From: a virus
Reading direction: 5' to 3' (one strand)
Length of the DNA: 15,254 bases
Virus genome (UHGV): UHGV-0297988
Positions 5,560 through 11,276 of the stretch are shown here, in pieces. The translations under genes were made by a program, and so were the position numbers. Under the pieces are notes generated by a model, which was not told where the DNA came from, did not search any database, and worked only from the letters and a program-made list of their open reading frames with translations. The stretch's first letter is position 1. Each line of letters begins with the position of its first letter.

Positions 5560-5579
<20 letters not shown>

Positions 5580-6891
5580 TCTCCCGCATATTGCCAGTAT
5601 GGCCTTTAATGAGCCGCTGATGCTTGAACCCGCCTATGCGCGGGTTTTCTTTTGTGCGCTTGCAGGCCAGCTTGGGATCAGCCGCCTGACGGATGCGGTG
5701 TCCGGTGACAGCCTGACTGCCCAGGAGACACTCGCGACGCTGGCGTTATCCGGTGATGATGACGGACCACGACAGGCCCGCAGTTATCAGGTCATGAACG
5801 GCATCGCCGTGCTGTCGGTTTCCGGCACGCTGGTCAGCCGGACGCGGGCGCTGCAGCCGTACTCGGGGATGACCGGTTACAACGGCATTATCGCCCGTCT
5901 GCAACAGGCTGCCAGCGACCCGATGGTGGACGGCATTCTGCTCGATATGGACACGCCAGGCGGAATGGTGGCGGGGGCATTTGACTGCGCTGACATCATC
6001 GCCCGTGTGCGTGACATAAAACCGGTATGGGCGCTGGCCAACGACATGAACTGCAGTGCAGGTCAGCTGCTTGCCAGTGCCGCCTCCCGGCGTCTGGTCA
6101 CGCAGACCGCCCGGACAGGCTCCATCGGCGTCATGATGGCTCACAGTAATTACGGTGCTGCCCTGGAGAAACAGGGCGTGGAAATCACGCTGATTTACAG
6201 CGGCAGCCATAAGGTGGATGGCAATCCTTACAGCCATCTTCCGGATGACGTCCGGGAGACACTGCAGTCCCGGATGGACGCAACCCGCCAGATGTTTGCG
6301 CAGAAGGTGTCGGCATATACCGGCCTGTCTGTGCAGGCTGTGCTGGATACCGAGGCTGCAGTGTACAGCGGTCAGGAGGCCATTGATGCCGGACTGGCTG
6401 ATGAACTTGTTAACAGCACCGATGCGATCACCGTCATGCGTGATGCACTGGATGCACATAAATCCCGTCTCTCAGGAGGGCGAATGACCAAAGAGACTCA
6501 ATCAACAACTGTTTCAGCCACTGCTTCGCAGGCTGACGTTACTGAGGTGGTGCCAGCGACGGAGGGCGAAAACGCCAGTGCGGCGCAGCCGGACGTGAAC
6601 GCGCAGATCACTGCAGCGGTTGCGGCAGAAAACAGCCGCATTATGGGGATCCTCAACTGTGAGGAGGCTCACGGACGCGAAGAACAGGCGCGCGTTCTGG
6701 CAGAAACCCCCGGTATGACCGTGGAAACGGCCCGCCGCATTCTGGCCGCAGCACCACAGAGTGCACAGGCGCGCAGTGACACTGCGCTGGATCGTCTGAT
6801 GCAGGGTGCACCGGCACCGCTGGCTGCAGGTAACCTGGCATCTGATACCAATAAAGAATTACTTAATACACCTGAAGCTTTACCGGTATAA
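5560..6891 (+). CDS. C: Head maturation protease / scaffold fusion gpC (S49-type serine protease)
   Basis: Frame continuous with the track ORF 5446..6891; lambda-like start is GTG at 5560 (then TAELRNLPHIASMAFNEPLML), preceded by AGGAGGAG at 5548-5555 and overlapping the B stop by 20 nt as in lambda. 443 aa here versus 439 in lambda as recalled. Confidence 0.9.
6274..6891 (+). CDS. nu3: Scaffolding protein gpNu3, in-frame internal initiation within C
   Basis: Internal ATG at 6274 (MDATRQMFAQ...), 714 nt into the C frame, the same offset as Nu3 within C in lambda (recalled). Shares frame and stop codon with C. Confidence 0.7.
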   Translation: MDATRQMFAQKVSAYTGLSVQAVLDTEAAVYSGQEAIDAGLADELVNSTDAITVMRDALDAHKSRLSGGRMTKETQSTTVSATASQADVTEVVPATEGENASAAQPDVNAQITAAVAAENSRIMGILNCEEAHGREEQARVLAETPGMTVETARRILAAAPQSAQARSDTALDRLMQGAPAPLAAGNLASDTNKELLNTPEALPV

Positions 6892-6900
6892 GAGGCAGTT

Positions 6901-7233
6901 ATGGCGACAAAAGAAGAGTTTAACCATTACCAGCCGCTGGGTAACAGTGATCCGGCTCATACAGCAATTGCGCCTGGCGGATTGAGTGCGAAAACGCCTG
7001 CAATGACCCCACTGATGCTGGATGGCACTACCCGTAAGCTGGTTGTGTGGGATGGCACCACCGACGGTGCAGCCGTTGGCATTCTGGCGGTTGCTGCTGA
7101 CCAGACCAGCACCACACTGACGTTCTACAAGTCCGGCTCGTTCCGTTATGAGGATGTGCTCTGGCCGGAGGCTGCCAGCGACGAGACGAAAAAACGGACC
7201 GCGTTTGCCGGAACGGCAATCAGCATCGTTTAA
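6901..7233 (+). CDS. D: Head decoration protein gpD
   Basis: 110-aa ORF with C-terminal ...[57 protein letters not shown] matching lambda gpD; the N-terminal approximately 45 residues differ in several positions from my recollection of lambda. Confidence 0.94.
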
Positions 7234-7250: not shown

Positions 7251-7276
7251 AAAGGCCGCCTGTGCGGCTTTTTTTA
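7251..7276 (+). terminator. Terminator-like hairpin between D and E: GC stem, CTGT loop, T7 run
   Basis: AAAGGCCGC-CTGT-GCGGCTTT followed by TTTTTTT (7269-7275); the GCCGC/GCGGC core stem can extend by A-U/G-U pairs. Lies 18 nt after the D stop and 13 nt before the E start. Confidence 0.45.
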
Positions 7277-7288
7277 TGGAAATAATTT

Positions 7289-8314
7289 ATGTCTGTATAT
7301 ACAACTGCAGAATTACTGGCATCGACCCAGCATCACTTTAAGTTCGATCCGCTGTTTCTGCGCCTGTTTTTCCGTGAAACCTATCCTTTCACCACGGAAA
7401 AAGTCTATCTCTCACAAATTCCGGGACTGGTAAACATGGCGCTGTACGTTTCGCCGATTGTTTCCGGTGAGGTTATCCGATCCCGTGGCGGCTCCACCTC
7501 TGAATTTACGCCGGGTTATGTCAAGCCGAAGCATGAGGTGAATCCGCAGATGACCCTGCGTCGCCTGCCGGATGAAGATCCGCAGAACCTGGCTGACCCG
7601 GCTTACCGTCGTCGCCGTATTATTCGGCAGAATATGCTGGATGAAAATCTGGCGATTGCCCAGGTCGAAGAGATGCAGGCAGTTTCTGCCGTGCTTAAGG
7701 GCAAATATACCATGACCGGTGAAGCCTTCGATCCGGTTGAGGTGGATATGGGCCGCAGTGAGGCGAATAACATCACGCAGTCCGGCGGCACGGAGTGGAG
7801 CAAGCGTGACAAGTCCACGTATGACCCGACCGACGATATCGAAGCCTACGCGCTGAACGCCAGCGGTGTGGTGAATATCATCGTGTTTGATCCGAAAGGC
7901 TGGGCGCTGTTCCGTTCCTTCAAAGCCGTCAAGGAGAAGCTGGATACCCGTCGCGGCTCTCATTCCGAGCTGGAGACAGCGGTAAAAGACCTGGGCAAAG
8001 CGGTGTCCTATAAGGGAATGTATGGCGATGTGGCCATCGTCGTGTATTCCGGACAGTACGTGGAAAACGGCGTCAAAAAGAACTTCCTGCCGGACAACAC
8101 GATGGTGCTGGGGAACACTCAGGCTCGCGGTCTGCGCACCTATGGCTGCATTCAGGATGCGGACGCACAGCGCGAAGGCATTAACGCCTCTGCCCGTTAC
8201 CCGAAAAACTGGGTGACTACCGGCGATCCGGCGCGTGAGTTCACCATGATTCAGTCAGCACCGCTGATGCTGCTGGCTGATCCTGATGAGTTCGTGTCCG
8301 TTCAACTGGCGTAA
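7289..8314 (+). CDS. E: Major capsid protein gpE
   Basis: 341-aa ORF MSVYTTAELLASTQHHFKFDPLFLRLFFRETYPF...; same length as lambda gpE and recognisable sequence. Confidence 0.96.
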   Translation: MSVYTTAELLASTQHHFKFDPLFLRLFFRETYPFTTEKVYLSQIPGLVNMALYVSPIVSGEVIRSRGGSTSEFTPGYVKPKHEVNPQMTLRRLPDEDPQNLADPAYRRRRIIRQNMLDENLAIAQVEEMQAVSAVLKGKYTMTGEAFDPVEVDMGRSEANNITQSGGTEWSKRDKSTYDPTDDIEAYALNASGVVNIIVFDPKGWALFRSFKAVKEKLDTRRGSHSELETAVKDLGKAVSYKGMYGDVAIVVYSGQYVENGVKKNFLPDNTMVLGNTQARGLRTYGCIQDADAQREGINASARYPKNWVTTGDPAREFTMIQSAPLMLLADPDEFVSVQLA

Positions 8315-8316
8315 TC

Positions 8317-8343
8317 ATGGCCCTTCGGGGCCATTTTCTCTCT
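8317..8343 (+). terminator. Terminator-like hairpin between E and FI: 7-bp stem, UUCG tetraloop, U-rich tail
   Basis: ATGGCCC-TTCG-GGGCCAT (8317-8334) is a perfect 7-bp stem closing a C(UUCG)G tetraloop, followed by TTTCTCTCT (8335-8343). Starts 3 nt after the E stop. Confidence 0.45.
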
Positions 8344-8355
8344 GTGGAGGAGTTC

Positions 8356-8742
8356 ATGACGAAAGATGAACTGATTGCCCGTCTTCAGGAGCTGGGTGAG
8401 CAACTGAACCGCGATGTCAGTTTGACGGGAACGAAAGAAGAACTGGCGCTCCGTGTGGCAGAGCTGGAAGAGGAGCTTGATGACACTGCCGATCAGGATA
8501 CCCCTCTCAGTCCGGAAAATGCGCTGACCGGACATGAAAATGAGGTGGTATCAGCGCAGCCGGATACCGTGACTGATACGGCTGCTCTGGTCACGGTTGT
8601 GGCACTGGTGACGCTGCATACCGATGCACTTCACGCCACGCGGGATAAACCTGTGGCATTTGTGCTGCCGGGAACGGCGTTCCGTGTCTCTGCCGGTGTG
8701 GCAGCTGAAATGACAGAGCGCGGCCTGGCCAGAATGCAATAA
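8356..8742 (+). CDS. FI: DNA-packaging accessory protein gpFI
   Basis: Lambda-like start MTKDELIARL... at ATG 8356 with GGAGG at 8346-8350; the 41-nt gap after E matches lambda. The track ORF extends upstream to 8317, but that ATG sits inside the hairpin and lacks an RBS. Confidence 0.85.
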   Translation: MTKDELIARLQELGEQLNRDVSLTGTKEELALRVAELEEELDDTADQDTPLSPENALTGHENEVVSAQPDTVTDTAALVTVVALVTLHTDALHATRDKPVAFVLPGTAFRVSAGVAAEMTERGLARMQ

Positions 8743-8753
8743 CGGGAGGCGCT

Positions 8754-9107
8754 GTGGCTGATTTCGATAACCTGTTCGATGCTGCCATTGCCCGCGCCGA
8801 TGAAACGATACGCGGGTACATGGGAACGTCAGCCACCATGACATCCGGTGAGCAGTCCGGCACAGTAATACGTGGTGTTTTTGATGACCCTGAAAATATC
8901 AGCTATGCCGGACAGGGCGTGCGCGTTGAAGGCTCCAGCCCGTCCCTGTTTGTCCGGACTGATGATGTGCGGCAACTGCGGCGTGGAGACACGCTGACCA
9001 TCGGTGAGGAAAACTTCTGGATAGACCGGGTTTCGCCGGATGATGGTGGAAGCTGTCATCTCTGGCTCAACCGTGGGCAACCACCCGCTGTTAACCGGCG
9101 ACGATAA
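8754..9107 (+). CDS. FII: Head completion (head-tail connector) protein gpFII
   Basis: 117-aa ORF MADFDNLFDAAIARADETIRGYMGTSAT...; lambda gpFII length and sequence. Confidence 0.93.
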   Translation: MADFDNLFDAAIARADETIRGYMGTSATMTSGEQSGTVIRGVFDDPENISYAGQGVRVEGSSPSLFVRTDDVRQLRRGDTLTIGEENFWIDRVSPDDGGSCHLWLNRGQPPAVNRRR

Positions 9108-10097: not shown

Positions 10098-10838
10098 ATG
10101 GCAACACCAAATCCTCTTGAGCCGGTAAAAGGTGCCGGTACCACTCTGTGGGTTTACAACGGCAAGGGTGATGCTTATGCAAACCCGTTGTCAGACGATG
10201 ACTGGCAGCGACTGGCTAAGGTGAAGGATCTGACGCCGGGCGAGATGACGGCAGAATCCTACGATGATAACTACCTGGATGATGAAGACGCGGACTGGAC
10301 CGCGACCGGTCAGGGGCAGAAATCTGCAGGTGATACCAGTTTTACGCTGGCCTGGAAACCGGGAGAGGAAGGCCAGAAAGGGCTTATAGGCTGGTTTGAA
10401 AGCGGCGATGTCCGGGCCTATAAAATCCGTTTTCCGAATGGCACGGTGGATGTGTTTCGTGGCTGGGTCAGCAGTATCGGTAAAGCGGTGACGGCGAAGG
10501 AAGTGATCACCCGCACGGTGAAGGTCACCAATGTGGGACGCCCGTCGATGGCAGAAGATCGCAGCACGGTAACAGCGGCCACCGGCATGACGGTAACGCC
10601 AGCCAGTGCTTCCGTAGTGAAAGGGCAGAGCACCACGCTGACCGTGGCATTCCAGCCGGAAGGCGCAACCGACAAGAGCTTCCGTGCGGTGTCAGCGGAT
10701 AAAACAAAAGCCACCGTGTCGGTCAGTGGTATGACCATCACCGTGAACGGCGTTGCTGCAGGCAAGGTCAACATTCCGGTTGTATCCGGTAATGGTGAGT
10801 TTGCTGCGGTTGCAGAAATCACCGTCACCGCCAGTTAA
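10098..10838 (+). CDS. V: Major tail tube protein gpV with C-terminal Ig-like (Big_2-type) domain
   Basis: 246-aa [40 protein letters not shown]...; the C-terminal approximately 90 residues ([60 protein letters not shown]...) have the alternating hydrophobic/Thr/Ser/Val pattern of an Ig-like domain, as known for lambda gpV. Confidence 0.95.
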
Positions 10839-10853
10839 TCCGGAGAATCAGCG

Positions 10854-11276
10854 ATGTTCCTGAAAACAGAATCATTTGAACATAACGGCGTGACCGTCAC
10901 GCTTTCTGAACTGTCAGCCCTGCAGCGTATTGAGCATCTTGCCTGGTTGAAAGAGCAGGAAAAAAAGGCTGAATCCAGCGGCAACCAGCAGGTGTCTGTA
11001 GAGGATCTTATCAGAGGCGGGGCGTTTCTGGTGGCGATGTCTCTGTGGCATAACCATCCGCAGAAGACAAAGCTGCCGTCCATGAATGAAGCCATTACGC
11101 AGATTGAGCAGGAAGTGCTTACCACCTGGCCCACGGAGGCAATTGCTCAGGCTGAAAACGTGGTGTACCGGCTGTCCGGAATGTCTGAGTTTGTGGTGAA
11201 TAATTCCCCTGAACAGGCAGATGACGCCGGGCCTGCAGAGCCTGTTTCTGCGGGAAAGTGTTCGACGGTGAGCTGA
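10854..11276 (+). CDS. G: Tail assembly chaperone gpG
   Basis: 140-aa ORF MFLKTESFEHNGVTVTLSELSALQRIEHLAWLKEQEKK...; lambda gpG length and sequence; the slippery heptamer lies 6 codons before its stop. Confidence 0.94.
   Translation: MFLKTESFEHNGVTVTLSELSALQRIEHLAWLKEQEKKAESSGNQQVSVEDLIRGGAFLVAMSLWHNHPQKTKLPSMNEAITQIEQEVLTTWPTEAIAQAENVVYRLSGMSEFVVNNSPEQADDAGPAEPVSAGKCSTVS
11252..11258 (+). promoter_or_regulatory. Programmed -1 ribosomal frameshift slippery heptamer G GGA AAG
   Basis: GGGAAAG at 11252-11258 sits in the G frame as G|GGA|AAG (codons at 11253 and 11256). A -1 slip puts the next codon at 11258 (GTG), which continues into the 144-codon T frame ending 11692. Same heptamer and geometry as the lambda G-T frameshift. 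Confidence 0.9.

Follow-up and report, generated by a model that had tools for sequence, protein, structure and literature searches.

A conserved terminator-type hairpin between capsid gene E and FI of a lambda-type phage and its possible role in stabilizing the capsid message

The late genes of phage lambda are expressed from a single long transcript, yet the yields of their protein products differ by orders of magnitude. In a 15,254-nt stretch of viral DNA (UHGV virus genome UHGV-0297988, referred to as the window), the gene for the major capsid protein is followed immediately by a stable RNA hairpin with a U-rich tail (8317-8343), which raises the question of what such an element does in the middle of an operon whose downstream genes have to be transcribed as well. 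The hairpin was characterized by folding, by comparison with shuffled sequences and with homologous loci, and by searches of the literature and of RNA families.

The window represents the left arm of a lambda-type phage and spans its joined cohesive ends. Because the cos sequence GGGCGGCGACCT lies inside it, at 1144-1155, the window extends from the right-end (lysis-side) genes over the joined ends into Nu1, the arrangement found in a prophage, a circle or a concatemer. The head genes include D (6901-7233), E (7289-8314, plus strand), FI (8356-8742, plus strand) and FII (8754-9107), all four confirmed by Pfam. Gene E encodes 341 aa in the list of open reading frames, matches the Pfam family Phage_cap_E with an E-value of 7.5e-70 and is 95-99% identical at the DNA level to lambda-like phages in which it is annotated as major capsid protein E; its stop codon TAA (8312-8314) is followed directly by TC. 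FI, the DNA packaging chaperone, matches Packaging_FI (E = 9e-49), with profile positions 1-131 aligned from residue 2 of the 8356 start, and lambda is annotated at the equivalent ATG. Identity of 95-99% over the E-FI region was likewise found for lambda, 434, HK629, mEp332 and many further Lambdavirus records. The head-tail operon is tightly packed, the only gaps longer than 15 nt being those between D and E (55 nt) and between E and FI (41 nt), and the hairpin takes up most of the latter, between the E stop (8312-8314) and the FI ATG at 8356. The FI product is itself made in large amounts, a point that carries no weight as evidence here.

Beginning 2 nt past the E stop and lying on the strand of the late operon, the hairpin consists of the 5′ arm ATGGCCC (8317-8323), the tetraloop TTCG (8324-8327) and the 3′ arm GGGCCAT (8328-8334), the RNA loop UUCG being closed by a C-G pair (C(UUCG)G, 8323-8328). 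The T/C-rich tract TTTCTCTCT (8335-8343) abuts the stem, and the FI Shine-Dalgarno sequence GGAGGAG follows at 8346-8352, all on the plus strand. The initial annotation had described ATGGCCC-TTCG-GGGCCAT (8317-8334) with a U-rich tail after E as an unusually stable motif, and both the letters and the fold bear this description out. The isolated hairpin has a folding energy of -12.3 kcal/mol (z = -3.3), equalled by 1 of 200 shuffles, and its five G-C core pairs retain a pair probability of about 1.0 in every context tried, from 30 to 300 nt per side. Seven perfect pairs, five of them G-C, and a 4-nt loop fall within the usual dimensions of intrinsic terminator stems (about 5-14 pairs, loop of 3-8 nt), the C(UUCG)G loop belongs to the UNCG tetraloops closed by C-G, and, like intrinsic terminators, the element follows a coding region on the strand that is transcribed. 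A simple consensus terminator scan detects it. The terminator form exists on the sense strand only; the opposite strand is without a T run. The tail TTTCTCTCT holds five T in eight positions but just three to four consecutive U, the U tract being short and broken by C (UUUCUCUCU here; UGUUUCUCU in lambda), and its tail score is -4.17, against -5.62 for the element between D and E.

As a bare hairpin, this structure is within chance expectation. Two perfect hairpins with 7 bp and a 4-nt loop occur in the window, where dinucleotide shuffles give 0.97 ± 1.04, and such a hairpin with at least five G-C pairs is expected 0.39 times and present in 32% of the shuffles. The E-FI hairpin ranks within the top 0.4% of 26-nt local folds in the window, and about 15 hairpins in coding regions are as strong or stronger. 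What goes beyond chance is the placement in one of the two sizeable gaps of the head operon together with conservation, and it is only because of these two properties that a reading as mere chance is rejected.

Conservation was assessed with E homologues gathered from GTDB genomes and IMG/VR, each E stop being located by tblastn, which yielded 316 loci from prophages and phages with 93 distinct E-downstream sequences; relatedness among many of these sequences means that the homologue counts do not stand for independent events. Nearly all of the 93 share one order: 1-24 nt past the stop comes a hairpin rich in GC, then a run rich in T, and finally GGAG with the start codon ATG of an FI homologue; the GGAG-type site keeps the same spacing in nearly all relatives. 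Among the lineages with 37-72% E identity, two Pseudomonas-type loci carry strong hairpins without a U run, and the hairpin is absent at one locus. Among lineages with 84-100% E identity, the GGCCC-loop-GGGCC core is constant while the surrounding spacer is unalignable between clades. When 42 distinct 22-mers from these lineages are aligned, 94.9% of the cells are paired, compared with 30-57% when the partner columns are slid. The five core pairs are invariant across the 42 and hence uninformative on covariation. One outer pair occurs as U-A in 28 sequences, C-G in 6 and U-G in 1 (unpaired in 7); the other as G-U in 12, G-C in 11, A-U in 10 and U-A in 1 (other combinations in 8). Changes on both sides are found in two of the seven pairs (7 cells), a result equalled by 4 of 500 shuffles, and the covariation score of 0.157 is reached by none of the 500 (0.093 ± 0.012). 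Compensatory changes of the kind that mark a conserved structured RNA element are present in this stem. Within the lambda clade (233 loci, 19 variants), one of 14 stem columns is polymorphic versus 14 of 26 other spacer columns (Fisher p = 0.0036); that single change, A to G at the first base, yields a G-U pair, and no stem-breaking variant occurs among the 233 loci.

Beyond these lineages, at 37-72% E identity, unrelated GC stems occupy the same position. Examples include CATGCCCC-TGAAT-GGGGCATG followed by ATTTTT, AGGCTCC-TTCG-GGAGCCT followed by TTTTTT, GAGGCAGGGC-GCAA-GCCCGGCCTC followed by TTTTT, AAAAAGGGGCGC-TGAG-GCGCCCCTTTTT, and, in phage 4A7, GGGGGC-GAAAT-GCCCCC with TTTTTT five bases past the stem. 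This replacement of the stem, in place, by unrelated stems is the strongest single argument for selection. The stem is kept, its outer pairs covary and distant lineages have other stems at the site, and the E-FI hairpin is under selection in many related phages. The tails vary, with a mean of 4.2 T in the 8 nt past the stem (range 1 to 7) and canonical runs in some relatives (8 U in locus L070; 5-6 U in L241, L063, L043 and L239). As for the loop, its claimed unusual stability stands for the UNCG class, which is closed by C-G in 61 of the 93 distinct sequences and occurs on four unrelated stems; the exact UUCG, in contrast, is ruled out as a conserved feature by the varying loops, which also include UGCG, UCCG, UGUC, UGUU, AUUC, UUAG, UGUG and GCA.

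The hairpin has a companion on the other side of E. The stem-loop AAAGGCCGC-CTGT-GCGGCTTTT between D and E runs into seven T (7269-7275; whole element 7251-7275, plus strand) and has the canonical shape of an intrinsic terminator, stronger than the E-FI element. Its sequence is identical in lambda, and a comparison of 84 distinct regions upstream of E, from relatives with E identities as low as 41%, shows a constant stem and T run with a free loop. Since the D-E hairpin is equally conserved, E is bracketed throughout the capsid family, and the earlier remark that two hairpins enclose this gene therefore extends down to 41% E identity. The D-E element precedes the head gene that is expressed most strongly. 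The major tail gene V, also highly expressed, is separated from G by a 15-nt gap (10838-10854) in which the terminator scan finds no hairpin; the bracketing is specific to E and no general mark of abundant late genes. A further terminator-like hairpin on the sense strand, GAACCCGC-CTATGC-GCGGGTTT followed by TCTTTTGT (5626-5647), falls shortly past the end of B and inside the beginning of gene C, whose GTG is at 5560.

Counterparts of the E-FI hairpin have been recorded in well-known phages. The lambda E-FI spacer contains the identical 18-nt hairpin (approximately NC_001416 7163-7180), with the tail TGTTTCTCT instead of TTTCTCTCT. At the same position, GTGGCCC-ATTC-GGGCCAC is found in N15, whose tail is CTTTCT, and GTGGCCC-TGTC-GGGCCAC in phi80/HK225; the UUCG loop is confined to some lineages. 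The GenBank records of N15 and HK225 label the homologous structure as 'putative rho-indep. transcription terminator' and 'rho-independent terminator', respectively, in agreement with the terminator reading suggested initially and with the form detected by the scan; the lambda RefSeq record has no feature at the site, and a full-text literature search found no published measurement on the hairpin and no paper with lambda late-transcript 3′ ends. Like the intrinsic terminators of E. coli and its phages, the element combines a GC-rich 7-bp stem, a stable tetraloop and a U-rich run starting at the stem base, on the sense strand and just past a stop codon; unlike standard examples, it has only a short U run broken by C, and it sits in an operon that needs read-through and is transcribed by an antiterminated polymerase. 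The T7 terminator T-phi, another hairpin element of terminator type directly past the most abundant structural gene, lies downstream of capsid gene 10 and terminates incompletely, with lower read density beyond it (PMC6938266); T-phi differs in acting on T7 RNA polymerase, in its longer stem-loop and in its measured termination, and its sequence is unrelated. Intercistronic 3′ stabilizer stem-loops likewise place a stable hairpin, which should impede 3′ exonucleases, after whichever cistron of the operon is expressed more strongly. These include the REP elements in malE-malF, and REPs are without a U-rich tail. The E-FI hairpin has such a tail and is unrepeated, and membership among REP-type repeated palindromes was discarded, the core motif GGCCCNNNNGGGCC being single-copy in the window even with one mismatch allowed. 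A known Rfam family was likewise ruled out, as there was no match at gathering thresholds and only chance-level matches at E-values up to 5. The E-FI hairpin is not a new kind of element or mechanism. To judge from its sequence, it is an ordinary terminator-type stem-loop, identical to that of lambda and of a kind already known and annotated in close relatives, and most likely it shields or delimits the capsid message.

The upstream ATG at 8317, described initially as an in-frame FI codon buried in the stem, is indeed in frame with FI (open reading frame 8317-8742). As a real FI start it was rejected, being unconserved, without a ribosome site and inside the stem, while the Pfam FI profile begins at 8356; of 81 distinct relatives, 30 have no start codon at the equivalent position or have it in another frame. 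The in-frame ATG is a by-product of the stem. In phi80 (L004, JX871397, position 775), the annotated start of the FI homologue is the GTG of the stem, and in phage 4A7 (L344, NC_049946, position 1669) it lies 3 nt past the E stop; both are probably too early because a start with a ribosome site lies downstream. Annotators are cautioned that an ATG or GTG within the stem is not the FI start.

The most satisfactory account, to which we assign a probability of about 0.55, is that polymerase modified by Q reads through the element and that the hairpin then shields the E message from 3′ exonucleases, while serving as a moderate terminator for unmodified polymerase. Late in lytic growth, Q-modified RNA polymerase would pass the element, so that FI and the tail genes would still be transcribed. 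Q-lambda is reported to build a nozzle onto the channel through which RNA leaves the polymerase, and thereby to keep terminator hairpins from forming (PMC9388147); read-through in lytic growth is therefore to be expected. Once the RNA is clear of the polymerase, the hairpin would form; after an endonucleolytic cut in the U-rich spacer or further downstream, it would stop 3′-to-5′ exonucleases, and RNA containing E would outlast the distal RNA. The D-E hairpin may offer D the same protection and leave a 5′ stem-loop on the E segment, the two hairpins together lending extra stability to the most needed head message. Polymerase lacking the Q modification would meet a terminator of moderate strength. 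We infer this sequence of read-through, processing and stabilization partly from the D-E element: a terminator there precedes the most needed gene, where attenuation would be counter-productive, and a stabilizing role fits both elements, which favours it. In E. coli libraries, terminator hairpins raise the abundance of the upstream transcript about 2.2-fold (PMC11696848). The highly expressed V, with no such hairpin after it, counts against this account.

A natural insertion also bears on the protective role. In phage PhiR70_1 (L343, PV340577.1, 1667-3125), for which the record gives E. coli C as host, an IS4 interrupts the E-FI hairpin, is accompanied by a duplication of 12 bp of the target (GGCCCTTCGGGG) and separates E from FI by about 1.4 kb. 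About three pairs remain beside E, the intact 5-pair core and the T run being retained before FI, and a further hairpin and T run, contributed by the IS4 end, lie some 75 nt beyond the E stop. If PhiR70_1 really grows, an intact hairpin beside E would not be essential for plaque formation, and the insertion would count against the account given above.

Four other explanations were weighed against read-through with protection. A true partial terminator, or attenuator, of late transcription, at which some polymerases would stop past E and thereby lower the transcription of FI and distal genes, is a possible but doubtful reading. It draws on the terminator anatomy found by the scan, on the fast folding favoured by UNCG loops, on T7, where read density drops past T-phi in the same layout (PMC6938266), and above all on the U-rich tail, which is conserved and fully canonical in several relatives, yet would not be needed by a pure exonuclease barrier; this is the main point for an attenuator. 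Weighing the other way are the short and interrupted U tract (UUUCUCUCU; UGUUUCUCU in lambda), the presence of the highly expressed tail gene V downstream, and a stronger D-E terminator ahead of E, a site at which attenuation would do harm; lambda late transcription is, moreover, antiterminated by Q, which is reported to block hairpins in the exit channel (PMC9388147). A role mainly outside lytic growth, in which the element would stop unmodified polymerase that has come into the head genes of a lysogen from spurious or upstream promoters and avert untimely capsid or FI synthesis, seems unlikely: the need for insulation specifically around E is left unexplained, and the scan found no promoter-like site nearby on the plus strand, although the presence of such elements on both flanks of E and the restriction of the terminator form to the sense strand would suit it.

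Control of FI translation would operate either through pairing of the tail, or in N15-type phages of a CUUCC motif close behind the stop, with the FI Shine-Dalgarno sequence, the hairpin acting as a clamp, or through melting of the structure by the ribosome terminating on E, which would couple FI to E. Pairing between 8335-8341 and 8346-8352 is feasible (-4.3 kcal/mol) and attains a probability of as much as 0.86 when more context is included; in many relatives the hairpin is enclosed by a putative outer helix UCC...GGA, and in the window the hairpin, 2 nt past the stop, is within reach of the terminating ribosome. Against this, the stop-to-hairpin distance ranges from 1 to 24 nt among relatives, the helix between tail and Shine-Dalgarno sequence is not retained outside the lambda clade, and the FI site is no more hidden than in composition-matched shuffles, which makes such control very unlikely. 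In a partition-function comparison of 78 distinct sequences with shuffles in which composition, hairpin and site were held fixed, the mean unpaired probability of the FI site was 0.30 for native and 0.22 for shuffled sequences, and natives were lower in only 24 of the 78; for the window alone the values were 0.15 and 0.26 ± 0.16. Sequestration of the FI ribosome site, whether by the CU tail or by CUUCC upstream of the hairpin in N15-type phages, was discarded, since natives are if anything more open than shuffles. The initial annotation suggested that the element could lower FI expression; FI retains its strong GGAGGAG site, and pairing of the Shine-Dalgarno sequence beyond composition and conserved among relatives, as in a translational operator, was not found in this comparison. 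Least credible is the absence of any RNA function, with the hairpin as a chance palindrome or as a feature of the DNA, for example a hot spot for insertion or a linker for recombination where two modules meet. In favour of this, 32% of the shuffled windows contain a hairpin of such quality, the GGCCC/GGGCC core, invariant within spacers that cannot be aligned, could serve as microhomology, and the IS4 of PhiR70_1 is inserted exactly in the hairpin; pair-preserving variation, unrelated replacement stems, enrichment of UNCG loops and the strand-specific T-rich tail nevertheless point to an RNA hairpin under selection.

A more specific form of the protective account may tentatively be proposed, in which the two hairpin-plus-U modules flanking E make up a processing cassette: RNase E would cut the U-rich spacers and free a long-lived E message bearing stem-loops at its 5′ and 3′ ends. 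If so, the high capsid yield would be set by RNA stability besides translation initiation, the E message would far outlast the remainder of the 26-kb late transcript, and the same would apply across the E-type capsid family, down to 41% identity. Two conserved hairpins enclosing the head gene of highest abundance offer a simple, testable RNA-level contribution to the differences in late-protein yield and, for phage engineering, the E-FI hairpin is a small natural part that can be retained or deleted in rebuilding the head operon.

Two minor observations concern the sequences compared. In N15/phi80-type loci (L001, L002, L004 and many IMG/VR loci), the 9-10 nt before the hairpin are strikingly rich in pyrimidines (CTTCCACCT, CTTCCCCCA, TTTCCATTCT) and complementary to the GGAG site of FI, the accessibility comparison lending no support to sequestration. 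Among the GTDB loci, L007-L022, L039-L062 and others derive from assemblies of unrelated organisms, including Kitasatospora, Bradyrhizobium, Paenibacillus, Shewanella and an Akkermansia MAG, with E at 92-100% protein identity to the query; the contigs are short and of low coverage, their tabulated intergenic sequences match the lambda variant, and their most likely source is contamination of the assemblies with lambda control DNA.
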